From Podarcis pityusensis (Eukaryota), in the NCBI GenBank assembly GCA_964106645.2, contig OZ067044.1: a stretch of DNA of 64,000 bases; one strand, written 5' to 3'. The notes under the pieces were generated by a model. That model was not told where the DNA came from. It ran no database searches and was given only the letters and a program-made list of their open reading frames with translations. Positions 1-24,093 of this stretch are shown here, in pieces. The position numbers and the translations under genes are program-made. Position 1 is the first letter of the stretch. Each line of letters starts with the position of its first letter.

Positions 1-230
1 TTGTATAAAGAAGTACTTCCTTTTATCTGTTCTGTATTGCCCAATGTTCAGCTTCATCCAGGCTCCAGTAATATGAGAGAGGGGGATCTATCTATTCATT
101 TTCTCAACCTCATTCATAATTCTATACAGCTGTTTCACTTCCCTTCTTGTATTTTATCTAAACTAAGTATCCCTACAGAAGTTGTTGCACCCATGGATCA
201 TTTGGGATGCCTTTTTCTGTGCTTGCTGTT
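1..230 (-). mobile_element. CR1 LINE fragment (ORF2 C-terminal region), truncated by window edge
   Basis: Copy of 12128-12360. Confidence 0.7.
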
Positions 231-730
231 ATTTCACACAACTTCTTTTTATGAATCCTCCAGAGAAGCCCCACATAGTCCAAAATTATACTACAAATAT
301 ATAGGAAGCATTCCATGTTTTATGCATTCTTCAGTTAAGCTGATCATAACAGGACAAATAAACTGTGCTTTGTGTGAGTGAAAAAGTACAAATCCTTATT
401 TTTAATTGATGAGGGATGTATAAATAACTATATATTTATGGTGACATGCTAATACCCCACAGGAAGATTGAACACTCAAGCTGTATGCATGCCTACATTT
501 CCTTTAATTTCTGAGATGAAGACTCACTCTGTCATTATTGTATGCCTCAGAATTTATGCCGCGTCTACCATTGCAATTTAAAAACTACTTGTAGGAAAAG
601 TTCTTCACAATCAGAACAACTGATGCTAATACTGTGATTTGATTTTGCTGACACCCTTATATAGTAAAACAAAAAATATATATGAGTTTTATTCCTATAA
701 GGTAAGGCCATTTCTGAAAGCAAAACTTAC

Positions 731-3160
731 CTGCTCACCAACCTCCTCTTTGGCATTGGCATCCCCACAGTTGCCATCCACAAGAACCACCTGAGAGCTA
801 TCATTGCATAGCAAATTTTCTGCCACCTGGATATGGGGTTTTGGGAAAGAGATCTGCTCTTTCCTCATCTCTGATGATAGACAGAGTTGGTAGGAATAAG
901 GTAAAGTTCCTTCTTCATAGTTTGGTGGAAATATGACCTGCGCCTTAGAAAAAGCACTAGGTTCAAAGCACTGGAATAATTTGGGATTTCCTGATTGTCG
1001 AAGTTTCATGACAATGACCAGTATCACCGTCAGGAGGAATAAAAATGAGATCAATGCCAAAGCCAGCACCAAGTAAAACTGGAGATCAGAATGATGTTCT
1101 GTGTCACTGGATTGCTTAGTCATTTCCGGAAGTGCCTCTTGGAAGTTCTCGGCAATCACAAGGTTGAGGACCACAGTAGCTGAGAGTGGAGCCTTCCCAT
1201 TGTCCTTCACCAAGATGACCAGCTTCTGTTTCACAGCATCTTTCTCCAGAAGGGCTCGTGACGTCCTGATCTCTCCTGTGTGGGTCCCAATGGTGAAGAG
1301 GGCCGGCTCTGTGGCCTGCAGCACTTGGTAGGAGAGCCAGGCATTGTGCCCAGAGTCCGCGTCCACAGCCACCACTTTGGTCACTAGGTAGCCTGGCTCT
1401 GCCGAGTGAGGAACCATCTCAAACAAGGCAGAGCCCTCAACACCCGGGACAGGATACAGAACGCGAGGGCTGTTATCGTTCTGATCCAAAATGTACACCC
1501 ACACGGTGGCGTTGTTGCTGAGAGAGGGAGAGCCGCCATCTTGGGCCTTCACTTGGATCTGAAACTCCCGGAATTGCTCATAGTCAAAGGAGCGCTGTGC
1601 ATAGATAGTTCCCGTCTCAGAGTTGATGGAGACGTAAGAGGAGAGAGGCAGCTCCTCCATGTTGCTGTTGAGGATGGAGTAAGTGATACGTGAGTTGCGG
1701 TCCAGATCCGGATCCGAGGCTTTGATGGAGAAAATGGAGGCACCTGAGGGATTGTTTTCTGGCACAAAGACACTGTGGGTTGATTTTTCAAAGGCAGGGG
1801 GGTTGTCATTGATATCTGAAATCTGCAGGGAGATGGTTTTGTTGGAGGAGAGAGGGGGGCTACCTTTGTCAGTGGCCGTGATTGTGATGTTGTATCCTGA
1901 GGCTTTTTCTCTGTCCAATGGACTGTCTGTGTGGATTTTATAGTTGTTCTTAGATATAGATGCTATTTTAAATGGTACATTACTTTGTAGATGGCATGTA
2001 ATTTTTCCATTTTCTCCAGAATCTCTATCCTTTACATTGATGAGAGCAATTATTGTTCCAGAAACAGAGTTTTCTGATACTGGGGTGGATAAGGAGGCCA
2101 CGATGATCTCTGGAGCATTGTCATTCTCATCTATAATCTTTATATCAACATTACAGTGAGCCACTAATCCTCCTCCATCTCTTGCTTCAACTGTCATAGT
2201 GTATTTTTCTGTTTCCTCAAAGTCAAGGGTCTCCTTAATTGTAATTGTTCCACTTTGTGGATCTAGTCTAAATTTCTCATAGACTTTTTTTGGGACTTTA
2301 CTGAATGTGTAACTGATCTGACTATTTGAACCTTCATCCTTATCAGAGGCTTTTACTTGGAGTATGGGGGACCCCACAGGAGAATTTTCCCTCAGACTAA
2401 CTGTATAAACTTCTTGAGTGAAGACTGGTGGGTTGTCATTGGCATCTGTGACATTAATCCATATCTGGGCAGTCCCAGTTTTTCTGGGTTCACCCCCATC
2501 CAGGGCCATAAGGATCAACTGAAGCGAGTGCTCACTCTCCCGATCCAAAGGTTTCTGCAGCACCAATTCTGCATATTTATGGCCATCCAGACTATGCTTA
2601 ATTTCTAATATAAAGAACTGATTTAGGCTTAACTGATAATTCTGGAGAGTATTAATCCCAATATCAGGATCTTCAGCTTTCCCAAGGAGAAATCTGGCAC
2701 CCGGCAATGTGGATTCAATTATTTCAAGTTTAATATTGGCTTCTAAGAATTGTGGGGCATTATCATTAATGTCTTGGATTGCTAGACTAACATGGAAAAC
2801 GTTCAATGGATTTTCGACCACAGCTTCAAAATCAATAAGGCAGTGTGTGCTCTCTCTACACATCCCCTCACGATCTATCCTCTCATTCACATGCAGGTTT
2901 CCATTTTCAGCATTGATAGTGAAATATGGCTTTTTACCTTCAGAAAGGATATGCAGGTTTCTATTCTTCAGGTCTCTGGCATTTAGTCCCAGATCCTTGG
3001 CAAGATTTCCCACCAAAGAACCCTTTGCCATCTCCTCAGGGATGGAATAGTGAACCTCTTCCAAAACTGCTCCACAAAACAAAGATGATAATATCAGAAG
3101 TGTTATATACCTTCCTGGTGTTTGAAAGCTCTTTCCAGGCAGGATTCCTCTCATCTTCAT
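731..3160 (-). CDS. PCDHGB: Protocadherin gamma-B-like variable exon 1 (array type A)
   Basis: ORF 695..3184 has six cadherin repeats (DxNDNxP, DRE, DxD motifs), a TM segment ([16 protein letters not shown]) and gamma-B signatures ([30 protein letters not shown]). First true ATG is at 3160 (ORF-track start is GTG). Donor CAG|GTAAG at 731/730. Symbol is family-level only. Confidence 0.93.
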
Positions 3161-3402
3161 TTTCCTCTTCTCTTTGATGAGCACAGGATTTCAGATTTCC
3201 ACCAAGACAGGAGATTTTTTTTTGCACAGTAAAAAAAAGAACTGGATCCTTTGGCTTTGTATGTGCTGCAGTGTTTTCTGTTTTCCAGCTGAAACGTTTG
3301 TTCCAGCGTCTGCTGGTATTCCCGATGTGCAGTTTGGGACAAAGAGATCTCTCTGCAGAAAGCATCAGTGGAACTTCAGCTGCCCTTGGATTGCCGCCTT
3401 GT

Positions 3403-3440
3403 CCAACAGTGACACTGTGAGTCTGAAACCGAGAACTGCA
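3403..3440 (-). promoter_or_regulatory. Pcdh CSE / CTCF site, exon 1 promoter (CACT variant)
   Basis: Minus strand TGCAGTTC..ACTCACAGTGTCACTGTTGG, ~250 bp upstream of ATG; matches CSE plus upstream TGCAG module. Confidence 0.8.
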
Positions 3441-5520
3441 ATCTTTTCCCAATGATTTTTCTTCCCTAATTCATGACATAGTAGTATTTTTATGTAATGA
3501 CTCAGACCATATTCTCATACAGGTTATTTGAATATGCCTGTTGGAAAGTGTTATCTGTTCACCATTACAGTAGGTTAAAAGAAATCAGCTTCAAATTAAT
3601 ATTTACAGCAAAGAAAAAGCGGTAAAGAATTTATAGCCCTATTTCCAATATTTCTTTAGGAAAAATCAGAATAGCAGACAGCAGTATGAGAATGATATTG
3701 TTATTTATAATAAAAGACTTTTAAACAAATTAGAAAAATATTGTATTAGGTATTTACAGGCATCTTAGACTGTGTGTGGAAAGCCTAAAGCCGTGTCTGA
3801 AAAGTGTGTTTACCTTTACATAATTTCACTGAAAATAGTGCCACATCTCAAGTCCTATTTTGTCACCTTATGTCCACACAATTTCTGGTCTGTTTGTGTA
3901 GCTTTCTCCTTCAACAGTTGTACTGTGTCAGTATTTACCTTTGCCATTTTCCCCACCTGCCCATTTGTCCAGTTACGATAGACACTTTGCTGATTTCATT
4001 TAGTTTGTGGTGTGTGCTTTTGACCTTACACAACACCCCAGCTACTTCACAATATCACAGATATGGGTCATCCCCTCTACATATGCAAACAATATGGAGA
4101 CCCCTATTTTGCCGGTGGGGAGTGGGGGGTGGGACAGGACAACCAGAAAGCTACTCAGAAATCACTACGGTCCTTTCAGTATTTTAGGAAGCTACATATC
4201 GTCTCCAGCTGTTAATGCAACTTCATTTAATCAAGGAACAAAACTGCATAAATAAGCCCTGGGTGTTATATGCTGAACCTCAAATGTTCTGAGCTTTCCC
4301 CTCCATTTTTAAACTTCTTTTTCTATGTTTCCTGAGCACACTGCAATTGTCAGTCATGGTCCTGTGCCCTAATTCCTTCCAGCAGCTAGCACCAACCCTG
4401 GCAAGAACACTCCTCCATCCTCACATCTGCCCTACTGGCCATGAGCCCAGCAGGGAGTTGGAGCGGGTGGTTCATTGCAGGCTTAAGTAACTCAAGAACC
4501 TGCTAATATATCCCACAATGCTATGATCAGAAATACAGTTATCCATCTATTCATGCGTTCATGCCATGTAAGTATCATAGCTAACATGTTGGTAGAGGAG
4601 TTCAAGAATTCAACATGCTTCGTGTATATTGAGCTGGTCTCATGTAAAGAACAAAACTGTGAACCAGGAATTCCGTGGTATGAATTTTGCCTCTGACAGG
4701 AACTCACTTATATAAGAATTATAAGATAATGTGTCAAATCCAGACTTAAATAAATTTGACTTAAATAAATTTGACTTAAATTAGTCTTGCTTGACTAACT
4801 TGGTCCAAGGATAACTAATTCTGAATCTGACCCATTATATGCAATGCCCTTTGAAACTTATAAATATCATTTACACAGTATCATTATTATTGTCTAAATC
4901 ATGAGGCAGAAATACATAACGCAGGCAGTGCAATCTGGCCAGTAGCATTATTGAAAAAACTGACATGGAAATTGAAGACAGCAAGAGGCCAGGGGAAATA
5001 TGATAACTTTTATGCAGTCTTGGATGATTTTATAGATTATACAAACAATGAGACATGTGGCAGAACGGTGCCTTGGCCTACAGCACAGTTTGGTGTGCAT
5101 GAAGCACATATTTTATTTTATTCTTCCTGCTTCCTTCTTGCCTTTGTATAATCCCTGCAGACCAACACTGCTGCTGATACAATATATATTTGTAGTTGTG
5201 ATCAACAGTCAAAGAGATGGAGGTCATTACGTACCATTTTGTTTTTGTTAAGATTGAAATGATTTTAGAATATACACTTTAGCAAAGCTCTGTGGAGTAT
5301 TTGAAGATAACTCTCTGACTGTATGTAATTCTTTTATTTTTGTTTTAAATAAAATTTAAAAATAAATAAATGCACAATTCATGTCTTTAACAAAATATCC
5401 CACATTATCTGTCCACCTGTCCGCCTTTCAGACAGTTGTTTAGAAAGAGCTTTAATGCAATGTGGTTTCACTTAAAGGAATATGGGGGCTGGAAATATCC
5501 ACAATCTACTCTAGAAGGCC

Positions 5521-5544
5521 AGTCAGTCAGTCAGTCAGCCAGCC
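5521..5544. repeat. (AGTC)n microsatellite; copies at ~17649, ~29836, ~42031
   Basis: 4, 5, 5 and 6 AGTC units in the four array units. Confidence 0.9.
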
Positions 5545-6951
5545 AATCAGTCTTGACTTGACTTTTTTTTTACATCACACATGCAGAAACACACATGCCT
5601 TTATTGAACCCCACCTTACAGAAAACAAAACACGACTGATTTGTTTTCCCACCCACAAATTCCAGTCTGCAGAGATATGGTGAATGGACTTGACCATGGA
5701 CCACAATCTCATTTATTTACAAGTCTGATCTGATTTCTACCAAGTTGAAGGCCTTCCTTGCAGGTCACATTTAATTGGTGACCCCACTCTGGACTTAAGA
5801 TTGGGATCAGTACTGAAACTGGTATTTGCTCTTCACTCAATTTTGTGTAGAGGAGGACATTCAAACACCAGGAGCTGGTAAATCTTAGGTATGAGATAAT
5901 TAGTTCTCCTTTCCAGATCCACCCAAGTTAGTAAGGACGCTATGAGGCTAAGCATCCTTTTATGCCATGTTGCGCCCACTCTAGGTTTCTTAGGTTTCTA
6001 ATCTACATAGAACATGTGCATTGTGGACTATTTAAATGGAATACCGGTATCTAGATGTAGCTAGACTTTAATTTTCCACACTCTGAATTTTAATACTGAA
6101 TTCCAGTATTAAAATTAGAAAAATGTGTGGACTAAACTAATGTAGATGTCATTAGTTTGATAAGGCAATTCAATCTGATGTTTCTGGAACTTTCCTCTTC
6201 ATTGAATGAAACAGGGAAGCTCTAGATCTGAACTATGTATAAATACTTTATACAATGATGTTTAATGTGAATTGTAGGCAGCAATTCATTGTATAATTTC
6301 TAAGTGAAACTATATTAACAGCATAATTCACACGCATAACCTAGATTCAAACAATCTACTGAAGTTCATGGTAGCTGCAGTTCATTAAACTGAAAACTCA
6401 CACAGTATAAATGAACAAATTTATAATTAATTTGATTTTATGGAGAAGGAAGTAAAGCATAATTTACAGACACCTCTCAAAAGTATATGTCTTTAAAATT
6501 TATAGCTTAAAAAAATTGCTAGTAATACTAATAACAGTGATAGTATTTTCTGCTATATAGCAAGGTGCCCTCCTTTGATTCTACAGCCAAAATTGCTGCC
6601 CCCCCAAGCCAAGTAATGTGAAAAACAAAGTTCTTTTCCTCTCTTTATCTAATTTAATGAAAGTAGTAGAAGGTCAACTCCTCAAAATACTAGTTGTTCA
6701 AATGACAGCAAGATAAGTTCTACCAGATGGTTTCAAGGGCATGGCTCGAAGCTGCAATGTGTAGCTTCCCTATGGAGCGAAAAGGAGCATCCTGATTCAT
6801 GAAAGCCAAATGATGTAAGAGCCAAACTATTCATTTATATGGTGAAAAACAAAAAGGCAGTCACATTAGCTGGATAAAAAGCACTGTGACAATGTCACTA
6901 ATGGCAAAGAATGATGGATAATGGCATTTAATTTCAGAAAACAAACCTTAC

Positions 6952-9372
6952 CTGTTCTCCATTATCTACTGCAGAATCAAAATTGTTCCCTACATTGCCT
7001 GTAAAAGGCACAGCAGGTTTCTCACTGCTAAGAATATTCTCTGCAATCTGTATATTTGGTGTCAGGAAGGTAAACTCGTTCTTCCTGGACTCAGAAGACA
7101 GACACAGCTGGTAGGAATAGGGCAAAGTCCCATCTTCAAAGTTGGGTGGAAAGATGGCACCATTCTTGGAATGGGGAACAGGACCAAAGCACTGTAGGAA
7201 CCTGGGATGCCCTGATTGACGGAGCTTCATTGTAACGGCCAGAATGACAGTCAAGAGGAACAAGAAGGAGATCACAGCTAAGGCCAGCACCAAGTAGAAC
7301 TGCAGGTCAGACTGATACTCCGAGCTGCTGGGTTGGCTCTTCATTTCCGGAAGGGCCTCCTGAAAGTTCTCAGCAAACACCAGGTTAAGAGTCATGGTGG
7401 CCGAGAGAGATGGCTGCCCGTTATCCTTCACCATAATGACCAGTCTCTGTTTCACAGCGTCTCTCTCCACAAAGGCCCTGGCTGTCCTGATCTCTCCAGT
7501 ATGAGAACCAACCGTGAAGAGTGCCGGCTCAGTGGCCTGAGTCAGGTGGTAGGAGAGCCAGGCGTTGTGTCCAGAATCTGCATCCACGGCCACCACCTTG
7601 GTGACAAGATAATCTGCCTCGGCCGAACGAGGCACCATCTCAAACAAGGCTGAGCCCTTGGCTTCTTGGGAGGGGGACAGGATACGAGGGCTGTTATCAT
7701 TCCTGTCAAGAACAAACACCCTGACGGTCACATTGCTGCTGAGAGGGGGAGAACCCCCATCTTGGGCCTTCACTTGCACCCGAAACTCTCTGAATTGTTC
7801 ATAGTCAAAGGATCTCTGGGCATAGATGATGCCAGTCTCAGAATTAATGGAGATATAGGAGGAGATGGGAAGCTCCTCAATGTTGCTGTTGAGGATGGAG
7901 TATGTAATCCGTGAGTTCTGGTCCATATCAGGATCAGAGGCTTTGATGGTGAAAATGGAGGCACCTGAAGGATTGTTTTCTGGCACATAGATGCTGTAGG
8001 TTGATCTCTGAAATGTAGGGGCATTATCATTGATATCTGAGATCTGTAGTGAGATTGTTTTGTGTGTGGAAAGAGGTGGAGTTCCTCTGTCAGTGGCTGT
8101 GATTGTAATATTATATGCAGGAGCTATTTCTCTGTCCAAAGGACTGTCGGTCTGGAGCTTGAAGTAATTGTTAGATGAGGGAAGAATTTTGAAGGGCAAA
8201 TCATCGTTTAAGTAGCAAGTAACCTTCCCATTATCTCCACTATCTCTGTCATTCACATTGATCAGTGCAATGATTGTTCCTGACAGAGAATTTTCAGGAA
8301 CTGGGCTGAACATGGAGGCTAATGTCACTTCTGGGGCATTATCATTCTCATCATGAACCCTTATCTCAATATTAGAATGTGTCACCAATCCACCTCCATC
8401 TTTTGCAGCAACTGTCATACTATATTCATCATTGTCCTCAAAATCCAGTTGCTCCAGAAGAGTGATTCTACCACTGATGGGATCCAGCCTGAATTTCTGT
8501 TCAGCCGTTGCCGGTATGTTGCTAAAATGATACCTGATTTGGGCATTTGTACCTTCATCCTTATCAGAGGCTGCAACCTGGAGAACAAGTGACCCAACAG
8601 GAACATTTTCAGATAAACTGACCTTGTATACCTCTTGACTGAAAACAGGTGGGTTGTCATTGGCATCTGTGACATTAATCTGTATCTGGGCTGTCCCAGT
8701 TTTCCTAGGCTCACCCCCATCCATAGCGGTAAGAACCAAGTGAAGGGTCTGTTCACTTTCTCGATCAAGAGGTTTCTGTAGCACCAGTTCTGCATATTTA
8801 TGTCCATCCTTTCTCTCTCTAATTTCCAAAACAAAGTACTGATTGGAGCTCAGCTGGTAATCCTGGAGAGAGTTCACCCCAATGTCAGGATCTTCTGCTT
8901 TCCCAAGGAGAAATCGAGTGCCTGGCAAAGTTTGCTCACCTGTCTCCAGGTTGATGTTGCCATTGAGGAATTGTGGTGCATTATCATTAACATCCTGTAT
9001 TTCCACTAGCACATGAAAAATATTCAAAGGGTTTTCCACCACAACTTCAAAATTAACAAAGCAATTTGGATTTTTGCCACATATCCCCTCCCTATCAATC
9101 CTGTCATTTACATAGAGGTTTCCATTCTCTGCATTGATACTGAAATGCTGCATTTTAGCCACAGACACAGTGTGCAGATTGCGATGTTTTAGTTCTTTGG
9201 TGCTCAGTCCCAGGTCCTTGGCGAGGTTCCCCACAACGGAACCCTTTGCCATCTCCTCAGGGGTTGAATAATGAATCTGCTCTGATGCAGCCCAACAGGT
9301 AAAAGACAATAGAGAGAGAAGCAGTACTTGCCTTGTGAGTGCCCTGCCATTCCCTGGGTGCCTTCTCTCCAT
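6952..9372 (-). CDS. PCDHGB: Protocadherin gamma-B-like variable exon 2 (array type B)
   Basis: ORF 6934..9372, 6 EC + TM + gamma-B cytoplasmic motif; donor CAG|GTAAGG at 6952/6951, phase 0. Confidence 0.93.
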
Positions 9373-9646
9373 CTGGCTGGTTCTCTCAAAAACAGGCTGC
9401 TTCCTTTTCTCAGTTTCCTATGCTCAAGCTCTCACAGTGATGAAGGAAACAACATGAGGTATCACTGAGGAAGAATAAACTGCCTTTTTCTTATATTTGT
9501 GCAAAGCAAAAGAGATTTTTCCTTCTCTGCAAGAGTTCCCTGTCTCTGTGCTCTTCAGTAGGCCTGATCTGAATAACAGTGATGGGAGTTACTGCAGTCT
9601 AGGAAGCATCAATAGATGTCTATCCTCTCTCTGGCTCTCATACTGG

Positions 9647-9684
9647 CCAACACTGACACTTAGAGGACCACTCGAGGAACTGCA
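9647..9684 (-). promoter_or_regulatory. CSE / CTCF site, exon 2 promoter (CAGT variant)
   Basis: TGCAGTTC..CCTCTAAGTGTCAGTGTTGG. Confidence 0.78.
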
Positions 9685-10440
9685 TTTTGTTCTATGAAAA
9701 TAGACAGGGGTGAATAAATGCAGATGTTTCTCCAGCACATACTGTACCTTCCTTTCTGCTCACTGAGTGGAGCATTTGAGAAAGCTTTTCCTTGGTGTTC
9801 TTTCTTAGTGTACAGCTACCCTCATTTATGTTCGTGGCTTTTCAGTACTGTGAAAATTGGGGTTGTATCTAATACTGCAATTACATGAAGGTTATACACA
9901 TCTTCATTTTTTTTTTGGAAACATGGAAACATTATTATTAATATATAAATATCCAGTTACATAGTAAAACTTTATCTTAAAATTAATGTATTACGATAAT
10001 AGTTATGCTATAGTAGCACAAGAGCTGTAAGTCAACTGTATTTTTGTTGTTGTTGCTTAAATAGAATATAAACACCCTATTGAAATTATTCTATTTTTTT
10101 ATCTCTCCTAAGTTGTTGGATGTCTGTTCATCAACATTTATGGAGCAGAGTACAAGTTCTTCTCAGTGTTGGGTTGGAATTCCAAGAGTAACTTACTATT
10201 TCAAGAGTTCTCTCTCTGTTTTTTGAGGATAAGATGAGATGCAACACTTGCAGCTCCTGTCTAGACAGCACTAGGTAATAAAAGTGTGTTCGCTGGTATT
10301 GGTTCTACATCAGACTCTGCCACTGCCTCCTACCTGCTGGTGCCATACAAATGTCCTTGTTTAGCAGTTGCTCCCCTGTGATCAAAGCAGGAACACAGCA
10401 CAAGTGCAGGACCAATAGCTGTAGCTGCTCTACCAGCAGT

Positions 10441-10619
10441 AAAAAAAGGTAAAGGACCCCCGGATAGTTAAGTTCAGTCAAAGGCGACTATGGGGTGGCG
10501 GCGCTCATCTCTCTTTCAGGCCGAGGGAGCCGGCATTTGTCCACAGCCAGCTTTCCAGGTCATGTGGCCAGCAAGACTAAACAGCTTTTGGCACAACGGA
10601 ACACCTTGACGGAAGCTAG
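10441..10619 (-). mobile_element. Sauria SINE 3' fragment
   Basis: aaaggtaaagg (reverse of ACCTTT tail), ..ggcgctcatctc..ggccgagggagccggc..ggtcatgtggccagc..gactaa; recognised from family consensus. Confidence 0.8.
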
Positions 10620-11064
10620 GCATGATCCAACAGGATAAAATGTTTGTTGGCACTTTGCATGTGAGCTCATATCATGATAATAGCATCATGAAGTTTGGGA
10701 ACTGAGAACAGTGGAGAGACAAGAGGTGTTCGAAGAAATCAATTGTGTCTAATTGAAAGAGTATATGATACAGGTCTTATTAGAAAATAACTAAAGTAAT
10801 TTACTTTCAGTTTGTACGCATTAAAGGTAATAGCTCCTCTTATTGCTCCATAGAACAGCCTACAAGACCATAAACCCAATCTGGAGATGTGTATCCTCTT
10901 CAAATATTTTTGCCTGGCATATATCCCCTGGAAACTGGAACCCCACTGCACAGAACTGACATTTCCAAGTGATCACAACCAGAGTGCATAATTTTCAACA
11001 TGCTTCTAGTTTTTCATCTGCTAGTCTATCACACGGAAACACTGCACACAATTCTATTTCATAA

Positions 11065-11297
11065 AAACATAAGAAGAGCCCTGCTGGATCAGGCCAGAGC
11101 TCTATTGAGTCCAGCATCCTTCCTTCCACTGTGGCCAACCAGATGCCCCTCAAAAGCTCTGCCCTTGGTCCACATTCAGAGGTGTCTGGTACTAGACATA
11201 ATATAGCCAATGTGACAATGATTTTTTCTAATCCCCCTTTAAAATCACCCAAGTAGGTGACCATCGTTGCACCTTGTGATAGTGATTTCCATTGTTT
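11065..11297 (-). mobile_element. CR1 LINE 3'-terminal fragment
   Basis: aacataagaagagccctgctggatcaggcca..tccagcatc..gtggccaaccagatgcc; minus-strand frame reads like the CR1 ORF2 end (..LGDFKGGLEK..). Confidence 0.75.
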
Positions 11298-11844
11298 GTT
11301 TGTTTAAATAAGTAAATTATTTAGAAATGGTTGATATAAAAACAAAATGGCTAGACATACCATTATCATTAAATTCCTATTATGAAATCAAATAAAGCAT
11401 ATAGCCTTCATAAAGATCCAAATAAAGTATGTGGGTCTGCGTTATCTTGAACTTCATTGCACCAATAAATTATGAAAAAACACACAGAAAGTTATCAGAC
11501 TGCCTCCCCTCCCTGACTCTTAGTTGTACCATTGATAAAATATTCCATGCTGTAGTAATCCATTCCCCTGAAGTTGGTGTTCTTAGCCCCTGCTAAGACA
11601 AATAGTTGCTCTGGCCACAGACAGTAACTGTTGGAGTAATTATCTGTCTTCTGTTTTACTAAATCCTTAAAATAACTAGAGAAATCAATGAGAGGATCCA
11701 TTGGCAAATTGCATCCTGTCATTATTTCATTTTCTCTTATTATATCCACCCACAAATTCTTAATTTAGGGACATGCCTCCCAAACCTGTTGCATCCTAGC
11801 ATTGGTTGAATTGTACTTCCAACGTAATTATTTGCTGTTCTATA

Positions 11845-11940
11845 AATTTGACCAAACTGTGGGAGGCAGTGGAAGACAGGAGTGCCTGGCGTGCTCTGGT
11901 CCATGGGGTCACGACGAGTCAGACACAACTAAACAACAAC
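11845..11940 (+). mobile_element. RTE-BovB LINE 3' end
   Basis: gggaggcagtggaagacaggagtgcctggcgtgctctggtccatggggtcacga..actaaacaacaac tail. Confidence 0.8.
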
Positions 11941-12104
11941 TAAAATGTGACGAAGCTACAGCAGTGTCATATACCATCAAAAAATAAACTTATACAAGTG
12001 TTTCTTAAGATTCACACTAATTGTTTTCTGCCATTTCCATTTTCACTGATATGATGTCCCAGACATCTCTGGCAAGTACTTTGTTGCATTTAGTTGTCAA
12101 CAAG

Positions 12105-12360
12105 GAATTCCATAGTTTAACTATGCATTGTATGAAGAAGGTCTTCCTTTTATCTGTTCTGAATCTCCCAATTTTCAGCTTCACCCAATGGCCACAGGCT
12201 CCGGTAATATGGGGGAGAGGGATCTCTCTATTCATTTTCTCAACCTCGTTCATAATTCTATACAGCTGTCTCACGTCCCTTCTTGTCTTTTATCCAAACT
12301 AAGTATCCCTACAGAAGTTGTTGCACCCATGGATCATTTGGGATGCCTTTTTCTGTGCTT
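12105..12360 (-). mobile_element. CR1 LINE fragment (ORF2 C-terminus)
   Basis: ORF 12017..12274 reads LYRIMNEVEK..GHWVKLKIGRFRTDKRKTFFIQCIVKLWNSL, typical of the CR1 ORF2 C-terminus. Confidence 0.8.
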
Positions 12361-12865
12361 GCTGTTATTTCACACAACTTCTTTTTATGAATCCTCCAGA
12401 GAAGCCACACACAGCCCAAAATTATACTACAAATAAATAGGAAGCATTCATGTTTTATGCATTCTTCAGTTAAGTTGATCATAACAGGACAAATAAACTG
12501 TGCTTTGTGTGAGTGAAAAAGTACAAATCCTTATTTTTAATTGATGAGGGATGTATAAATAACTATATATTTATGGTGACATGCTAATACCCCACAGGAA
12601 GATTGAACACTCAAGCTGTATGCATGCTTACATTTCCTTTAATTCCAGAGATGAAGACTCACTCTGCCATTATTGTATGATTCAGAATTTATTCTGTGTC
12701 TACCATTGCAATTTAAAAGCTACTTGTAGGAAAAGGTCTTCACTATCAGAACAACTGCTGCTAATACTGTAATTTGATTTTGCTGACACCCTTACATAGT
12801 AAAACAAAATAAAAAAATGAGTTTTATTCCTTTAAGGTAAGGCTGTTTCTGCAAGCAAAACTTAC

Positions 12866-15295
12866 CTGCTCACCAACCTCCTCTTTGGCATTGGCATCCC
12901 CACAGTTGCCATCCACAAGAACCACCTGAGAGATATCATTGCATAGCAAGTTTTCTGCCACCTGGATATGGGGTTTCGGGAAAGAGATCTGCTCTTTTCT
13001 CATCTCTGACGATAGACAGAGTTGGTAGGAATAAGGTAAAGTTCCTTCTTCATAGTTTGGTGGAAATATGACCTGCGCCTTAGAAAAAGCATTAGGTTCA
13101 AAGCATTGGAATAATTTGGGATTTCCTGATTGTCGAAGTTTCATGACAATGACCAGTATCACCGTCAGGAGGAACAAAAATGAGATCAATGCCAAAGCCA
13201 GCACCAAGTAAAACTGGAGGTCAGAATGATGCTCTGTGTCACCGGATTGCCTAGTCATTTCTGGAAGTGCCTCTTGGAAGTTCTCGGCAACCACGAGGTT
13301 GAGGACCACAGTAGCTGAGAGTGGAGCCTTCCCATTGTCCTTCACCAAGATGACCAGCTTCTGTTTCACAGCATCTTTCTCCAGAAGGGCTCGTGACGTC
13401 CTGATCTCTCCCGTGTGGGTCCCAATGGTGAAGAGGGCCGGCTCTGTGGCCTGTAGCACTTGGTAGGAGAGCCAGGCATTGTGCCCAGAGTCCGCGTCCA
13501 CAGCCACCACTTTGGTCACTAGGTAGCCTGGCTCTGCCGAGTGAGGAACCATCTCAAACAAGGCAGAGCCCTCAACACCCGGGACAGGATACAGAACGCG
13601 AGGGCTGTTATCGTTCTGATCCAAAATGTACACCCACACGGTTGCATTGTTGCTGAGAGAGGGAGAGCCGCCATCTTGGGCCTTCACTTGGATCTGAAAC
13701 TCCCTGAATTGCTCATAGTCAAAGGAGCGCTGTGCATAGATAGTTCCCGTCTCAGAGTTGATGGAGACGTAAGAGGAGAGAGGCAGCTCCTCCATGTTGC
13801 TGTTGAGGATGGAGTAAGTGATACGTGAGTTGCGGTCCAGATCTGGGTCCAAGGCTTTGATGGAGAAAATGGAGGCACCCGAGGGATTGTTTTCAGGCAC
13901 AAAGACACTGTAGGTTGATTTTTGAAAGACAGGGGGGTTGTCATTGATATCTGAAATCTGCAGGGAGATGGTTTTGTTGGAGGAGAGAGGGGGGCTACCT
14001 TTGTCGGTGGCTGTGATTGTGATGTTGTATCCTGAGGCTTTTTCTCTGTCCAAAGGACTGTCTGTAAGGATTTTGTAGTAGTTCTTAGATACAGATGCTA
14101 TTTTAAATGGTACATTACTTTGTAAGTGGCAGGTGAGCTTTCCATTTTCTCCTGAATCCCTATCCTTTACGTTGATGAGAGCTATTACTGTTCCAGAAAC
14201 AGAATCTTCTGGAATTGGAGAAGATAAGGAGGCTAGAATAATTTCTGGAGCATTGTCATTCTGATCTATAATCTTTATATCAACATTAGAGTGAGCCACT
14301 AATCCACCTCCATCTCTTGCTTCAACTGCCATAGTGTACTTCTCTGTTTCCTCAAAGTCAAAGGTCTCCTTAATTGTAATTGTTCCACTTTGTGGATCTA
14401 GTCTAAATTTCTCATACACTTTTTCTGGGACTTTACTGAATGTGTAATGGATCTGACTATTTGAACCTTCATCCCTATCAGAGGCTTTTACTTGGAGTAT
14501 GGAGGACCCCACAGGGGAATTTTCCCTCAGGCTAACTGTATAAACCTCTTGAGTGAAGACTGGTGGGTTGTCATTGGCATCTGTGACGTTAATCCATATC
14601 TGGGCAGTCCCAGTTTTTTTTGGTTCACCACCATCAAGAGCCGTGAGGATCAACTGAAGCGAGTGCTCACTTTCCCGATCCAAAGGTTTTTGTAGGACCA
14701 ACTCTGCATTTTTATGGCCATCTAGACTGTGTTTAATTTCTAATACAAAGAACTGATTTAGGTTTAACTGATAATTCTGGAGAGAATTAATCCCAGTATC
14801 AGGATCTTCAGCTTTCCCAAGGAGAAATCTAGCACCTGGCAATGTGGATTCAATTATTTCCAGTCTAATATTGGCTTCTAAGAATTGTGGGGCATTATCA
14901 TTAATGTCCTGAATTGCTACACTTACATGGAAAACATTCAATGGATTTTCAACCACAGCTTCAAAATCTATAAGGCAGTGTGTGCTCTCTCTACACATCC
15001 CCTCACGATCTATCCTCTCATTCACATACAGGTTTCCATTTTCAGCATTGATAGTGAAATAAGGCTTTTTACCTTCAGAAATGATATGCAGGTTTCTGCT
15101 CTTCAGTTCTCTGGCATTCAGTCCCAGATCCTTGGCAAGATTTCCCACCAAAGACCCCTTTGCCATCTCCTCAGGAATAGAATAGTGAACCTCTTCCAAA
15201 ACTGCTCCACAAAACAAAGATGATAATATCAGAAGGGTAATATGCCTTCCTGATGTTTGAAAGCTCTCTCCATGAAGGATTCCTCTCATCTTCAT
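12866..15295 (-). CDS. PCDHGB: Protocadherin gamma-B-like variable exon 3 (type A)
   Basis: ORF 12824..15319; ATG 15295; donor CAG|GTAAG at 12866/12865; paralog of exon 1. Confidence 0.93.
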
Positions 15296-15540
15296 TTTCC
15301 TCTTCTCTTTGATGAGCACAGGATTTCAGATTTCCACCAAGACAGGAGGGTTTTCGCCCCCTAGTAAAAAAAGAACTGGATCCTTTGGCTTAATTTGTAT
15401 ATGCTGCAGTGTTTTCTGTTTTCCAGCTGAAACGTTTGTTCCAGCGTCTGCTGGTTTTCCCGATGTGCAGTTTGGGACAAAGAGATCTCTCTGCAGAAAG
15501 CATCAGTGGAACTTCAGCTGCCCTTGGATTGCCGCCTTGT

Positions 15541-15578
15541 CCAACAGTGACACTGTGAGTCTGAAACCGAGAACTGCA
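15541..15578 (-). promoter_or_regulatory. CSE / CTCF site, exon 3 promoter (CACT)
   Basis: Same sequence as exon 1 CSE. Confidence 0.8.
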
Positions 15579-18500
15579 ATCTTTTCCCAGTGATTTTTCT
15601 CTCCTAATTCATGACATGACATAGTAGTATTTTTATGTAATGACTCAGACCATATTCTCATACAGGTTATGTGAATATGTCTGTTAGAAAGTGCTATCTG
15701 TTCACCATTATAATCAGCTTCAAATGAATATTTGCAGCAATTAAAAACAGTAATGAATTTATAGCACTATCTCCACGATTTCTTTAAAAAAAATCAGAAT
15801 AGCAGACTGCAGTATGAGAATGATATTGTTATTTATAATAAAAGACTTTTAAACAAATTAGAAAAATATTGTATTAGGCATTTACAGACATCTTAGACTG
15901 TGTGTGGAAAGCCTAAAGCCGTGTCTGAAAATTGTGTTTATTTTTACATAATTTCACTGAAAATAGTGCCACATCTCAAGTCCTATTTTGTCACCTTATG
16001 CCCACACAATTTCTGGTCTGTTTGTGTAGCTTCCTCCTTCAACAGTTGTACTGTGTCAGTATTTACCTTTGCCATTTTCCCCACCTGCCCATTTGTCCAG
16101 TTATGATAGACACTTTGCTGATTTCATTTACTTGGTGGTGTGTGCTTTTGACCTTATACAACACCCCAGCTACTTCACAATATCACAGTTATGGTTCATC
16201 CCCTCTACATATGCAAACAATATGGAGACCCCTATTTTGCCGGTGGGGAGTGGGGGGTGGGACAGGACAACCAGAAAGCTACTCAGAAATCACTACGGTC
16301 CTTTCAGTATTTTAGGAAGCTACATATCGTCTCCAGCTGTTAATGCAACTTCATTTAATCAAGGAACAAAACTGCATAAATAAGCCCTGGGTGTTATATG
16401 CTGAACCTCAAATGTTCTGAGCTTTCCCCTCCATTTTTAAACTTCTTTTTCTATGTTTCCTGAGCACACTGCAATTGTCAGTCATGGTCCTGTGCCCTAA
16501 TTCCTTCCAGCAGCTAGCACCAACCCTGGCAAGAACACTCCTCCATCCTCACATCTGCCCTACTGGCCATGAGCCCAGCAGGGAGTTGGAGCGGGTGGTT
16601 CATTGCAGGCTTAAGTAACTCAAGAACCTGCTAATATATCCCACAATGCTATGATCAGAAATACAATTGTCCATCTATTCATGCATTCATGCCATGTAAG
16701 TATCATAGCTAACATGTTGGTAGAGCAGTTCAAGAATTCAACATGCTTCATGTATATTGAGCTGGTCTCATGTAAAGAACAAAACTGTGAACCAGGAATT
16801 CCGTGGTATGAATTTTGCCTCTGACAGGAACTCACTTATATAAGAATTATAAGATAATGTGTCAAATCCAGACTTAAATAAATTTGACTTAAACAAATTT
16901 GACTTAAATTAGTCTTGCTTGACTAACTTGGTCCAAGGATAACTAATTCTGAATCTGACCCATTATATGCAATGCCCTTTGAAACTTATAAATATTATAT
17001 ACACGGTATCATTACTATTGTCTATATCATGAGGCAGAAATACATAACGCAGGCAGTGCAATCTGGCCGGTAGCATTATTGAAAAAACTGACATGGAAAT
17101 TGAAGATAGCAAGAGGCCAGGGGAAATATGATAACTTTTATGCAGTCTTGGATGATTTTATAGATTATACAAACAATGAGACATGTGGCAGAACGGTGCC
17201 TTGGCCTACAGCACAGTTTGGTGTGCATGAAGCACATATTTTATTTTATTCTTCCTGCTTCCTTCTTGCCTTTGTATAATCCCTGCAGACCAACACTGCT
17301 GCTCATACAATATATATTTGTAGTTGTGATCAACAGTCAAAGAGATGGAGGTTATTACGTACCATTTTGTTTTTGTTAAGATTGAAATGATTTTAGAATA
17401 TACACTTTAGCAAAGCTCTGTGGAGTATTTGAAGATAACTCTCTGACTGTATGTAATTCTTTTATTTTTGTTTTAAATAAAATTTAAAAATAAATAAATG
17501 CACAATGCATGTATTTAACAAAATATCCCACATTATCTGTCTGCCTGTCCGCCTTTCACACAGCTGTTTAGAAAGAGCTTTAATGCAATGTGGTTTCACT
17601 TAAAGGAATATGGGGGCTGGAAATATCCACAATCTACTCTAGAAGGCCAGTCAGTCAGTCAGTCAGTCAGCCAGCCAATCAGTCTTGACTTGACTTTTTT
17701 TTTACATCACACATGCAGGAACACACATGCCTTTATTGAACCCCACCTTACAGAAAACAAAACACGACTGATTTGTTTTCCCACCCACAAATTCCAGTCT
17801 GCAGAGATATGGTGAATGGACTTGACCATGGACCACAATCTCATTTATTTACAAGTCTGATCTGATTTCTACCAAGTTGAAGGCCTTCCTTGCAGGTCAC
17901 ATTTAATTGGTGACCCCACTCTGGACTTAAGATTGGGATCAGTACTGAAACTGGTATTTGCTCTTCACTCAATTTTGTGTAGAGGAGGACATTCAAACAC
18001 CAGGAGCTGGTAAATCTTAGGTATGAGATAATTAGTTCTCCTTTCCAGATCCACCCAAGCTAGTAAGGACGCTATGAGGCTAAGCATCCTTTCATGCCAT
18101 GTTGCGCCCACTCTAGGTTTCTTAGGTTTTTAATCTAAATAGAACATGTGCATTGTGGACTATTTAAATGGAATGCCGGTATCTAGATGTAGCTAGACTT
18201 TAATTTTCCACACTCTGAATTTTAATACTGAATTCCAGTATTAAAATTAGAAAAATGTGTGGACTAAACTAATGTAGATGTCATTAGTTTGATAAGGCAA
18301 TTCAATCTGATGTTTCTGGAACTTTCCTCTTCATTGAATGAAACAGGGAAGCTCTAGATCTGAACTATGTATAAATACTTTATACAATGATGTTTAATGT
18401 GAATTGTAGGCAGCAATTCATTGTATAATTTCTAAGTGAAACTATATTAACAGCATAATTCACACGCATAACCTAGATTCAAACAATCTACTGAAGTTCA

Positions 18501-19083
18501 TGGTAGCTGCAGTTCATTAAACTGAAAACTCACACAGTATAAATGAACAAATTTATAATTAATTTTATTTTATGGAGAAGGAAGTAAAGCATAATTTACA
18601 GACACCTCTCAAAAGTATATGTCTTTAAAATTTATAGCTTAAAAAAATTGCTAATAATACTAATAACAGTGATAGTATTTTCTGCTATATAGCAAGGTGC
18701 CCTCCTTTGATTCTACAGCCAAAATTGCTGCCCCCCCAAGCCAAGTAATGTGAAAAACAAAGTTCTTTTCCTCTCTTTATTTAATTTAATGAAAGTAGTA
18801 GAAGGTCAACTCCTCAAAATACTAGTTGTTCAAATGACAGCAAGATAAGTTCTACCAGATGGTTTCAAGGGCATGGCTCAAAGCTGCAATGTGTAGCTTC
18901 CCTATGGAGCGAAAAGGAGCATCCTGATTCATGAAAGCCAAATGATGTAAGAGCCAAACTATTCATTTATATGGTGAAAAACAAAAAGGCAGTCACATTA
19001 GCTGGATAAAAAGCACTGTGACAATGTCACTAATGGCAAAGAATGATGGATAATGGCATTTAATTTCAGAAAACAAACCTTAC

Positions 19084-21504
19084 CTGTTCTCCATTATCTA
19101 CTGCAGAATCAAAATTGCTTCCTACATTGCCTGTAAAAGGCACAGCAGGTTTCTCACTGCCAATAATATTGTCTACCATCTGAACACTGGGTGTCAGGAA
19201 GGTAAACTCGTTCTTCCTGGTCTCAGAAGACAGACACAGCTGGTAGGAATAGGGCAAAGTCCCATCTTCAAAGTTGGGTGGGAAGATGGCACCATTCTTG
19301 GAATGGGGAACAGGACCAAAGCACTGTAGGAACCTGGGATGCCCTGATTGACGGAGCTTCATTGTAACGGCCAGAATCACAGTCAAGAGGAACAAGAAGG
19401 AGATCACAGCTAAGGCCAGCACCAAGTAGAACTGCAGGTCAGACTGATACTCCGAGCTGCTGGGTTGGCTCTTCATTTCCGGAAGGGCCTCCTGAAAGTT
19501 CTCAGCAAACACCAGGTTCAGAGTCATGGTGGCCGAGAGAGGCGGCTGCCCGTTATCCTTCACCATAATGACCAGTCTCTGTTTCACAGCGTCTCTCTCC
19601 ACAAAGGCCCTGGCTGTCCTGATCTCTCCAGTATGAGAACCGACCGTGAAGAGTGCCGGCTCAGTGGCCTGAGTCAGGTGGTAGGAGAGCCAGGCGTTGT
19701 GTCCAGAATCTGCATCCACGGCCACCACCTTGGTGACAAGATAATCTGCCTCGGCCGAACGAGGCACCATCTCAAACAAGGCTGAGCCCTTGGCTTCTTG
19801 GGAGGGGGACAGGATACGAGGGCTGTTATCATTCCTGTCAAGAACAAACACCCTGACGCTCACATTGCTGCTGAGAGGGGGAGAACCCCCATCTTGGGCC
19901 TTCACTTGCAGATGGAACTCTCTGAATTGTTCATAGTCAAAGGATCTCTGGGCATAGATGGTGCCGGTCTCAGAATTAATGGAGATATAGGAGGAGATGG
20001 GAAGCTCCTCAATGTTGCTGTTGAGGATGGAGTATGTAATCCGTGAGTTCTGGTCCATATCGGGATCAGAAGCCTTGATGGTGAAAATGGAGGCACCTGA
20101 AGGATTGTTTTCTGGCACGTAGATGTTGTAGGATGGTTTCTGAAAAGTAGGGGCATTATCATTGATATCTGAGATCTGTAGTGAGATTGTTTTGTGTGTG
20201 GAAAGAGGTGGAGTTCCTCTGTCAGTGGCTGTGATTGTAATATTATATGCAGGAGCTATTTCTCTATCCAAAGGACTGTCGGTCTGGAGCTTGAAGTAAT
20301 TGTTAGATGAGGGAAGAATTTTGAAGGGCAAATCATCGTTTAAGTAGCAAGTAACCTTCCCATTATCTCCACTATCTCTGTCATTCACATTGATCAGTGC
20401 AATGATTGTTCCTGACAGAGAATTTTCAGGAACTGGGCTGAACATGGAGGCTAATGTCACTTCTGGGGCATTATCATTCTCATCATGAACCCTTATCTCA
20501 ATATTAGAATGTGTCACCAATCCACCTCCATCTTTTGCAGCAACTGTCATAGTATATTCATCATCTTCCTCAAAATCCAGTTGCTCCAGAAGAGTGATTC
20601 TACCACTGATGGGATCCAGCCTGAATTTCTGTTCAGCCGTTGCCGGTATGTTGCTAAAATGATACCTGATTTGGGCATATAAACCTTCATCCTCATCAGA
20701 GGCTGCAACCTGGAGCACAAGCGACCCAAGAGGAACACTTTCAGATAAGCTGACCTTGTACACCTCTTGAGTGAAAACAGGCGGGTTGTCATTGGCATCT
20801 GTGACATTAATCTGTATCTGGGCCGTCCCAGTTTTCCTAGGCTCACCCCCATCCATAGCGGTAAGAACCAAGTGAAGGGTCTGTTCACTTTCTCGATCAA
20901 GAGGGTTCTGTAGCACCAGTTCTGCATATTTATTTCCATCTTTTCTCTCTCTCACTTCCAAATTGAAGTACTGATTGGAGCTCAGCTGGTAATCCTGGAG
21001 TGAGTTCATCCCAATGTCAGGATCTTCCGCTTTCCCAAGGAGAAAGCGGGCCCCAGGCAAGGTTAGTTCGCCTGTCTCCAGGTTGATGTTGCCATTGAGG
21101 AATTGTGGTGCATTATCATTAACATCCTGGATTTCCACTAGTACATGGAAAATATTCAAAGGGTTTTCCACCACAACTTCAAAATTAACAAAGCAATTTG
21201 GATTTTTGCCACATATCCCCTCCCTATCAATCCTGTCATTTACATAGAGGTTTCCATTCTCTGCATTGATACTGAAATGCTGCATTTTAGCCACAGACAC
21301 AGTGTGCAGATTGCGATGTTTTAGTTCTTTGGTGCTCAGTCCCAGGTCCTTGGCGAGGTTCCCCACAACGGAACCCTTTGCCATCTCCTCAGGGGTTGAA
21401 TAATGAATCTGCTCTGATGCAGCCCAACAGGTAAAAGACAATAGAGAGAGAAGCAGTACTTGCCTTGTGAGTGCCCTGCCATTCCCTGGGTGCCTTCTCT
21501 CCAT
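19084..21504 (-). CDS. PCDHGB: Protocadherin gamma-B-like variable exon 4 (type B)
   Basis: ORF 19066..21504; donor CAG|GTAAGG at 19084/19083. Confidence 0.93.
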
Positions 21505-21777
21505 CTGGCTGGTTCTCTCAAAAACAGGCTGCTTCCTTTTCTCAGTTTCCTATGCTTAAGCTCTCACAATGATGAAGGAAACAACATGAGGTATCACTGA
21601 GGAAGAATAAACTGCCCTTGTTCTTATATTTGTGCAAAGCAAAAGAGATTTTTCCTTCTCTGCAAGAGTTCCGTCATTGTGCGCTTCAGTTGGCCTGATC
21701 TGAATAACAGTGATGGGAGTTACTGCAGTCTAGGAAGCATCAATGGGTCTCTATCCTATCTCTGGCTTTCATACTGG

Positions 21778-21815
21778 CCAACACTGACACTTAGAGGACC
21801 ACTCGAGGAACTGCA
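21778..21815 (-). promoter_or_regulatory. CSE / CTCF site, exon 4 promoter (CAGT)
   Basis: Same sequence as exon 2 CSE. Confidence 0.78.
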
Positions 21816-22573
21816 TTTTGTTCTATGAAAATAGACAGAGGTGAATAAATGCAGATGTTTCTCCAGCACATACTGTACCTTCCTTTCTGCTCACTGAGTG
21901 GAGCATTTGAGAAAGCTTTTCCTTGGTGTTCTTTCTTAGTGTACAGCTACCCTCATTTATGTTCGTGGCTTTTCAGTACTGTGAAAATTGGGTTCATATC
22001 TGATACTGCAATTACATGAAGGTTATACACATCTTCATTTTTTTTTTGGAAACATGGAAACATTATTATTAATATATAAATATCCAGTTACATAGTAAAA
22101 CTTTATCTTAAAATTAATGTATTACGATAATAGTTATGCTATAGTAGCACAAGAGCTGTAAGTCAACTGAATTTTTGTTGTTGTTGCTTAAATAGAATAT
22201 AAACACCCTATTGAAATTATTCTATTTTTTTATCTCTCCTAAGTTGTTGGATGTCTGTTCATCAACATTTATGGAGCAGAGTACAAGTTCTTCTCAGTGT
22301 TGGGTTGGAATTCCAAGAGTAACTTACTATTCCAAGAGTTCTCTCTCTGTTTTTTGAGGATAAGATGAGATGCAACACTTGCAGCTCCTGTCTAGACAGC
22401 ACTACGTAATAAAAGTGTGTTCGCTGGTATTGGTTCTACATCAGACTCTGCCACTGCCTCCTACCTGCTGGTGCCATACAAATGTCCTTGTGCTTAGCAG
22501 TTGCTCCCCTGTGATCAAAGCAGGAACACAGCACAAGTGCAGGACCAATAGCTGTAGCTGCTCTACCAGCAGT

Positions 22574-22753
22574 AAAAAAAAGGTAAAGGACCCCCGGATA
22601 GTTAAGTTCAGTCAAAGGCGACTATGGGGTGGCGGCGCTCATCTCTCTTTCAGGCCGAGGGAGCCGGCATTTGTCCACAGCCAGCTTTCCAGGTCATGTG
22701 GCCAGCAAGACTAAACAGCTTTTGGCACAACGGAACACCTTGACGGAAGCTAG
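22574..22753 (-). mobile_element. Sauria SINE fragment (duplicated copy)
   Basis: Copy of 10441-10619. Confidence 0.8.
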
Positions 22754-23201
22754 GCATGATCCAACAGGATAAAATGTTTGTTGGCACTTTACACGTGAGC
22801 TCATATCATGATAATAGCATCATGAAGTTTGGGAACTGAGAACAGTGGAGAGACAAGAGGTGTTCGAAGAAATCAATTGTGTCTAATTGAAAGAGTATAT
22901 GATACAGGTCTTATTAGAAAATAACTAAAGTAATTTACTTTCAGTTTGTACGCATTAAAGGTAATAGCTCCTCTTATTGCTCCATAGAACAGCCTACAAG
23001 ACCATAAACCCAATCTGGAGATGTGTATCCTCTTCAAATATTTTTGCCTGGCATACATCCCCTGGAAACTGGAACCCCACTGAACAGAACTGACATTTCC
23101 AAGTGATCACAACCAGAGTGCTGCCTAATTTTCAACATGCTTCTAGTTTTTCATCTGCTAGTCTATCACACAGAAACATTGCACACAACTCTATTTCATA
23201 A

Positions 23202-23434
23202 AAACATAAGAAGAGCCCTGCTGGATCAGGCCAGAGCTCTATTGAGTCCAGCATCCTTCCTCCCACTGTGGCCAACCAGATGCCCCTCAAAAGCTCTGCC
23301 CTTGGTCCACATTCAGAGGTGTCTGGTACTAGACATAATATAGCCAATGTGACAATGATTTTTTCTAATCCCCCTTTAAAACCACCCAAGTAGGTGACCA
23401 TCGTTGCACCTTGTGATAGTGATTTCCATTGTTT
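23202..23434 (-). mobile_element. CR1 3' fragment (duplicated copy)
   Basis: Copy of 11065-11297. Confidence 0.75.
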
Positions 23435-23981
23435 GTTCGTTTAAATAAGTAAATTATTTAGAAATGGTTTATATAAAAACAAAATGGCTAGGCATACAAT
23501 TATCATTAAATTCCTATTATGAAATCAAATAAAGCATATAGCCTTCATAAAGATCCAAATAAAGTATGTGGGTCTGCGTTATCTTGAACTTCATTGCACC
23601 AATAAATTATGAAAAAACACACAGAAAGTTATCAGACTGCCTCCCCTCCCTGACTCTTAGTTGTACCATTGATAAAATATTCCATGCTGTAGTAATCCAT
23701 TCCCCTGAAGTTGGTGTTCTTAGCCCCTGCTAAGACAAATAGTTGCTCTGGCCACAGACAGTAACTGTTGGAGTAATTATCTGTCTTCTGTTTTACTAAA
23801 TCCTTAAAATAACTAGAGAAATCAATGAGAGGATCCATTGGCAAATTGCATCCTGTCATTATTCCATTTTCTCTTATTATATCCACCCACAAATTCTTAA
23901 TTTAGGGACATGTCTCCCAAATATGTTGCATCCTAGCATTGGTTGAATTGTACTTCCAACGTAATCATTTGCTGTACTATA

Positions 23982-24093
23982 AATTTGACAAAACTGTGGG
24001 AGGCAGTGGAAGACAGGAGTGCCTGGCGTGCTCTGGTCCATGGGGTCACGACGAGTCAGACATAACTAAACAACTAAACAACTAAACAACAAC
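23982..24093 (+). mobile_element. BovB 3' end (duplicated copy, tail expanded)
   Basis: Copy of 11845-11940 with extra CAACTAAA units. Confidence 0.8.

Follow-up and report, generated by a model that had tools for sequence, protein, structure and literature searches.

Evidence for regional homogenisation around an apparently patchwork EC2-EC3 block in sister protocadherin gamma-B variable exons of a lacertid-type cluster

How can two sister variable exons of a clustered protocadherin differ in the coding DNA of EC2 and EC3 and hardly at all in the domains on either side? The question is raised by a block of variable exon 2 at 8410–9020, covering the end of EC1, EC2 and most of EC3, when it is set against the corresponding part of exon 4. 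The original prediction held that this coding block is more diverged than neighbouring non-coding DNA, and attributed it either to import as a cassette or to selection that protects it while the rest is homogenised, as in MHC-like segmental diversification. We examined these proposals in the 64-kb stretch of DNA analysed here (the window). Exons, domains, tracts and patches described below all lie on the minus strand.

Eleven variable exons of a clustered protocadherin, all with open frames, lie in the window, which does not include the constant exons. One large exon encodes six cadherin repeats, a TM region and a short tail, and ends in the splice donor CAG/GTAAG; in the four of 11 exons that were scanned, Pfam reported Cadherin_2, five Cadherin and Cadherin_C_2 domains. 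The best PDB match of the exon protein was gamma B4 (E 1e-230), and the nearest named proteins among the best 120 of 5234 matches were lacertid and gamma-B-like (88% over EC1-EC3). On this sequence evidence we assign variable exons 2 and 4 to protocadherin gamma-B, in a lacertid-type cluster. Most of the window (1–42110, no strand assigned) is a tandem array of about 3.5 units of about 12.1 kb, with borders at 1–12127, 12128–24280, 24281–36467 and a partial unit at 36468–42110, and each unit comprises one A-type exon (exons 1, 3, 5 and 7) and one B-type exon (exons 2, 4 and 6).

Exon 2, of B type, occupies 6952–9372, with its ATG at 9372 and its splice donor at 6952/6951. The signal peptide runs to 9283 and is followed by EC1 (9282–8980), EC2 (8979–8653), EC3 (8652–8338), EC4 (8337–8023), EC5 (8022–7693), EC6 (7692–7357), the TM region (7356–7228) and a cytoplasmic part that extends to the splice donor. 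Its sister, exon 4 (19084–21504), lies at an offset of 12132, which places the counterpart of the block at 20542–21152. Exon 6 (31271–33691) differs from exon 4 by two bases and encodes identical EC1-EC6 proteins, and units 2 and 3 (about 17700–24280 and 29900–36467) differ at a handful of sites over about 7 kb; this near-identity reflects either a very recent duplication or a duplicated haplotype. Exon 8 (42627–45047) takes the B position after the last A exon of the array and is a hybrid, exon-2-like from EC4 to the tail (94–99% of residues) and in the downstream intron, and only 71–80% identical in EC1-EC3. Units 1–3 contain a segment of about 825 bases (5601–6425) that is absent before exon 8 (junction 42110/42111). 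Exon 9 (47865–50279) is a distant variable exon of another subgroup, standing amid gamma-B exons. A promoter motif precedes all 11 exons, with the core CACT before exons 1, 3, 5, 7 and 8, CAGT before exons 2, 4 and 6, and CGCT before exons 9, 10 and 11 only; the motif at 9649–9659 (minus strand), upstream of exon 2, sits at what we take to be the position of the conserved sequence element. One RNA run, carrying another organism label, placed two reads on the block.

To describe the divergence landscape we aligned repeat unit 1 with unit 2, which differ by 363 substitutions in total. The block contains 39 substitutions in 611 bases (6.4%) and no indels, close to the predicted 40 or so in about 600 bp; the first falls at 8420 and the last at 9016, and three of the 39 lie in the final EC1 codons. 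About half (20.5 of 39) are synonymous, where the prediction spoke of many, and 16 residues change. The low counts expected for the flanks were also borne out: there is no difference in the 352 bases of 9021–9372 (signal peptide and most of EC1; Fisher P = 2e-8 against the block), where none had been predicted, one in 315 bases of EC4 (P = 1e-6), again as predicted, and nine in 1331 bases of the intron at 5600–6930 (P = 8e-13), predicted at about 10 in 1.3 kb. The block lies between two homogenised tracts without a difference between the exons, one of 408 bases (9017–9424; most of EC1, the signal peptide and the 5' flank) and one of 285 bases (8135–8419; the end of EC3 and most of EC4).

The wider claim, that the coding block exceeds the neighbouring non-coding DNA, holds against the intron at 5600–6930 but not against the non-coding stretches at 1–740 (46 of 740 bases differ, P = 0.91 against the block) and 3161–4100 (45 of 940, P = 0.21). 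Within exon 2, divergence is likewise comparable in EC5 (16 of 330, P = 0.38) and in the cytoplasmic part (13 of 276, P = 0.36), so that in this pair EC5 and the tail match EC2-EC3 in divergence. In a sliding scan, divergence was not uniform along the unit, but neither was the block uniquely diverged: about 10% of all 611-base windows in the repeat unit reach at least 39 substitutions, and the densest, with 57, starts at 1990 in exon 1, around EC3-EC4. When all non-coding DNA is pooled (164 of 7286), the block is still higher (P = 7e-8). The original contrast was thus in part cherry-picked, through a selective choice of comparison stretches. Units 1 and 2 form a mosaic in which 19 identical runs of 150–470 bases lie between stretches diverged by 5–7%, and the anomaly is the identity of the flanks as much as the divergence of the block, which likely stands out because its flanks were homogenised. 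The A-type exons (741–3160, 12866–15295, 25023–27458) are mosaic too; exon 5 is nearest to CAI5780371.1 in EC2 and EC3 (100% and 98%) and to XP_053253390.1 in EC4 (99%).

Such a landscape could arise passively if the block simply recorded the age of the duplication, having been missed by homogenisation by chance, with neither internal exchange nor selection. The divergence of the block is indeed close to that of the unconverted non-coding stretches (6.2% and 4.8%) and of exon 1 against exon 3 (5.2%), many other windows reach its count, and pN/pS is about 0.3 (replacement differences 18.5/495, pN 0.037). The synonymous divergence of EC2-EC3, however, at 17.5/147 (pS 0.119), is higher than in either of the two non-coding stretches that diverge most (P = 0.014 and 0.001).

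The arrangement of the differences within the block also speaks against chance survival. They are clustered: nine fall within 25 bases (P = 0.0009 within the block), and the longest gap comprises 112 identical bases (P = 0.01), short clusters being parted by identical runs of 112 and 80 bases. The densest patch, with these nine substitutions, lies at 8914–8938, and the residues L162 and A167 that exon 4 carries there co-occur in only one of 12 sister records, P. lilfordi CAI5780370.1. Twelve substitutions form a patch in the first half of EC3 (8547–8650), and after the 112-base identical run three more (D328E, N329D, S333T) lie at 8420–8434. Seven substitutions at 8802–8833 give exon 2 its V196, I199 and H206, in the EC2 beta4 strand and beta4-beta5 loop by alignment. 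At six of these seven sites the exon 2 letters agree with each of the A-type exons 1, 3 and 5, and the three residues occur in 4/15, 15/15 and 15/15 A-type records, respectively. Over this patch exon 2 differs from exons 1, 3 and 5 at 10–12 of 36 bases, so these exons are not its direct donors. In a protein search targeted at this patch, none of the 22 hits (from 87 candidates; seven proteins inspected) matched, and the V-L-E-I/H motif of exon 2 had no exact copy among 141 candidate proteins.

A different possibility is that a single donor, either exon 8 or a sister outside the window, supplied one cassette of about 600 bases to exon 2 or exon 4. The sharp edges of the block, with 408 and 285 identical bases on its two sides, would fit such an event. 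The original prediction hinted at exon 8 through its likeness to exon 4, a likeness that is not diagnostic: of the 39 sites, 16 carry the exon 2 letter in exon 8 and another 16 the exon 4 letter, and exon 8 is equally far from both exons in EC2-EC3 (pS 0.39–0.47). The longest run shared by exons 4 and 8 over diagnostic sites is 30 bases and spans two sites, and exon 2 has a counterpart of 31 bases. The residues cited for the likeness are family-wide, N206 and T260 being present in 12/12 lacertid sister records and Y291 in 7/12. Exon 8 was rejected as a donor of the block on these site counts and synonymous distances. Exons 1, 3, 5, 9, 10 and 11 were rejected as well, each being split between both forms, so that none of the seven non-sister exons compared in the window (1, 3, 5 and 8–11, with exon 7 left out) matched either form over the whole block.

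Paralogues in other lacertids were compared at the protein level. The alignment comprised 34 squamate records (31 lacertid) picked by name and identity from 141 proteins; the lacertid set forms 32 rows, one fused record having been split, and 12 rows with EC1 identity of at least 93% make up the B sister group. These records are automatic annotations, protein only and non-independent, with several from one species and possibly two assembly versions. The EC2 protein of exon 4 is 100% identical to P. lilfordi CAI5780370.1, so a single tract of EC2 size into exon 4 is plausible, but that paralogue is only 90% identical in EC3, where, as in EC4, exon 4 is nearest to CAI5780372.1 (97% and 100%); in EC5 it is nearest to CAI5780365.1 and XP_053250913.1 (99%). 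Exon 2 is nearest to CAI5780372.1 in EC3, EC4 and the tail. Pieces of the two forms moreover occur apart in two independent public runs, described below. With no block donor among the window exons compared and differences that fall in short clusters, the single import put forward in the original prediction is, in our judgement, quite improbable.

The differing residues are for the most part shared across the family. Among the 16 EC2-EC3 positions that separate the exons, the exon 4 state recurs in one or more of the 12 lacertid sister records at all 16 and the exon 2 state at 11, so that both residues occur in other lacertid sister genes at 11 of the 16; the exon 2 residues at 196, 199, 206, 260 and 333 occur in 0/12 sister records. 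Among 55 informative EC2-EC3 positions in 14 rows, the proportion of incompatible pairs rises from 15% for positions 1–5 residues apart to 44% for those over 100 apart, and incompatibilities at short range were as rare in 0 of 5000 permutations. Dependence on distance is the trace that would be expected of recombination rather than of repeated mutation. Together with the clustering of shared variants, it suggests that EC2-EC3 is not free of conversion. Mean residue identity across the 14 rows is 96% in EC1, 90% in EC2, 81% in EC3, 87% in EC4, 94% in EC5 and 97.5% in EC6, with EC4 below EC2, and EC3 is the most diverged domain in each of three species' record sets. The domain trees, built from 21 rows, were mostly without resolution (0–4 well-supported branches of 16–18), and species-specific homogenisation of EC1 was not demonstrated in this set (3.4% difference within species, 4.1% between). 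One record, UniRef100_A0A670IJV3 from Podarcis muralis, combines a B-type EC1 (95% to exon 2) with A-type EC4-EC6 (94–97% to exon 1) and is either a cross-type chimera or an annotation join.

Chance survival of an old block, which fits the overall level of divergence, would not account for clustered differences, for incompatibility that grows with distance, for both residues recurring in paralogues of other genera or for the standing of EC3 in all three species, and we regard it as unlikely. The flank homogenisation and MHC-like segmental reshuffling of the original prediction, by comparison, are supported by the mosaic landscape and the shared, clustered variants.

Relationships between units switch along the array. 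From EC5 to the tail (6952–8022), 34 sites distinguish exon 2 from exon 4; exon 8 agrees with exon 2 at 27 of them and with exon 4 at the other seven (P = 0.0008). The EC5-to-tail tree has two well-supported groups, one of which unites exon 2, exon 8 and CAI5780372.1. In EC6, pS among exons 2, 4, 8 and 11 is 0.02–0.07, against 0.39–0.55 for non-sister pairs in EC2-EC3, and exons 2 and 8 alone go from 0.47 in EC3 to 0.07 in EC6. GC3 is 0.56–0.66 in EC5-EC6 and 0.33–0.38 in EC3. Of the differences within the block, 21 pair a G/C in exon 4 with an A/T in exon 2 and eight are the reverse (P = 0.024); over the whole exon the counts are 39 and 17 (P = 0.005), and non-coding DNA is without bias. This direction of change in exon 4 fits conversion bias.

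Whether selection has acted on the block bears on two distinct proposals. One is that the two young copies acquired separate binding specificities through fresh point mutations at the EC2:EC3 interface, driven to fixation by strong diversifying selection. The EC2:EC3 interaction carries most of the specificity of clustered protocadherins (PMC5001838), positive selection on mammalian EC2-EC3 is cited in PMC1852091, and EC2-EC3 has 16 residue changes, with none in EC1 or EC4. Half of the differences are nevertheless synonymous, replacement divergence is far below synonymous divergence, and most of the residues are old family variants. The contact pairs 111/294 and 125/253 described for gamma-B7 (PMC5106212) align to four positions that are identical in exons 2 and 4, a comparison that covers these named pairs only. 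We therefore consider this explanation highly improbable. The block is not unusually fast and shows no sign of positive selection, and EC2-EC3 lacks the replacement excess of an MHC-like system. The other proposal, that selection protects EC2-EC3 while the rest is homogenised, agrees with the pattern at the level of the family but finds less support in this pair, given its low pN/pS; with EC5 and the tail diverged to the same degree, the sparing seen in exons 2 and 4 is not confined to the recognition domains.

The two exons, about 96% identical in EC1-EC4, may still encode distinct binding specificities, for which they are a candidate pair. With an end-to-end offset to gamma-B3, S/T333 aligns to T286 and H/N206 falls in the EC2 beta4-beta5 loop; T286 and this loop are contacts or a contact region in simulations (bioRxiv 10.1101/493106).

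Finally, the mosaic might have been produced in assembly, from reads of several near-identical copies. The scarcity of differences between units 2 and 3 over about 7 kb would make such joins conceivable. We compared the block with five of 24 listed public runs; their short, unphased contigs can show that a form is present but not that it is missing. In run X1 one contig is exactly exon 2 over 8551–8645, which includes eight diagnostic sites and lies within the patch at 8547–8650, and only exon 4 letters were found at 8433/8434 and 8773. In run X5 the letters at 8433/8434 and 8773 are those of exon 2, and pieces over 8884–8928 (six diagnostic sites) differ from the exon 2 form once. The exon 2 patch at 8802–8833 was not seen in runs X1, X2 and X3, which gave only exon 4 letters at 8809, 8823, 8832 and 8833, though absence is not inferable from such short contigs. 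Contig depths (near 99 for an EC1 piece, near 202 for an EC6 piece and 19–60 for short block pieces in X1) are not copy numbers and look like collapsed copies. Both forms are made of real variants, whose proportions differ in other runs. With exon-2-type and exon-4-type pieces present in independent runs, all 11 exons in open frames and named lacertid proteins carrying the same residues, an assembly origin seems to us barely credible.

Our preferred explanation, which we hold to be probable, is that regional conversion homogenised the flanks and that EC2-EC3 kept and reshuffled old variants in short tracts. Turnover of the array most likely proceeded by unequal crossing-over and conversion. 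One or other of these processes, acting recently and over long tracts, likely removed the differences in EC1, EC4 and the nearby intron and made these parts identical, and exons 2 and 8 would have swapped their 3' parts. EC2-EC3 would have retained old variants common to several sister genes, and short tracts from several sisters likely entered it. The sharing of residues would then have arisen by exchange and not by repeated mutation, with sister exons past the left end of the window as the presumed donors; among the in-window exons tested no donor was seen at the DNA level, and the matches to paralogues are at the protein level only. Selection for distinct homophilic specificity may bias which exchanges persist, a step suggested by the family pattern, with EC3 most diverged and EC1 and EC6 least, and by the role of EC2:EC3 in specificity, rather than by this pair. 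More tentatively, and on balance doubtfully, a gamma-B subfamily of lacertids might be a shuffling system in which EC1 and EC6 are held constant by conversion and short EC2-EC3 tracts are swapped. If so, the other exon type of the repeat unit could supply tracts too, the swapping would be quick enough to set species or individuals apart, and new neuronal self-recognition codes could be made by recombination in domains thought to be spared from conversion.

Diverged EC2-EC3 with homogenised flanks is the established pattern of clustered protocadherins, and the array is mostly another case of it; among the papers listed in a literature search that mostly lacked subscription journals, none dealt with a lacertid protocadherin cluster. 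In fugu, zebrafish and mammals, regional conversion spares EC2-EC3 (PMC1852091; Noonan 2004 as cited there), and as in those systems the 3' part of the lizard exons is homogenised (EC5-EC6 to the tail, with higher GC3) and EC2-EC3 is most diverged. The lizard array differs in being homogenised also in EC1 and the 5' flank, in having a two-exon 12.1-kb block as its unit, and in the apparent short-tract exchange inside EC2-EC3, which PMC1852091 describes as seldom or not converted. In Xenopus tropicalis the highest dS is generally that of EC2 or EC3, and many isoform pairs that are recent duplicates are highly alike in EC2-EC3, as here (PMC4978886). The identity pattern of the lizard family agrees with the regional pattern in both papers. 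EC2/EC3 is apparently free of conversion in PMC4978886, whereas the lizard patchwork argues for conversion between close sisters. The green anole shares with this array a squamate gamma-B subgroup grown by lineage-specific duplication (PMC2764143), but anole gamma-b4-23 scored as little converted there, with a ratio of highest to lowest domain dS of 2.25, and the lacertid-type array is strongly homogenised regionally.

The modest new point is the patchwork exchange inside EC2-EC3, and a young array offers a view of its steps: exons 2 and 4 share EC1 and EC4 and differ at only 16 EC2-EC3 residues, and exons 4 and 6 are copies without residue differences in EC2-EC3. Mouse beta6 and beta8 are close paralogues whose specificity comes from few residues; they are distinct at 92% identity in EC1-4, their interfaces differing at five positions (PMC8901172). 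Exons 2 and 4, a candidate pair for such distinctness, are closer still in EC1-4, with EC1 and EC4 unchanged. Were exons 2 and 4 to segregate when assayed for binding, the pair would offer a minimal natural system in which to test the origin of a new homophilic specificity. MHC class I diversifies by short conversion tracts. The lizard exons resemble it in that pre-existing family variants, in clusters, appear to move between paralogues into a recognition domain, and differ from it in that exons 2 and 4 have no excess of replacements and match their paralogues at the protein level. If the two exons do segregate, conversion would create and not only erase diversity in recognition domains.
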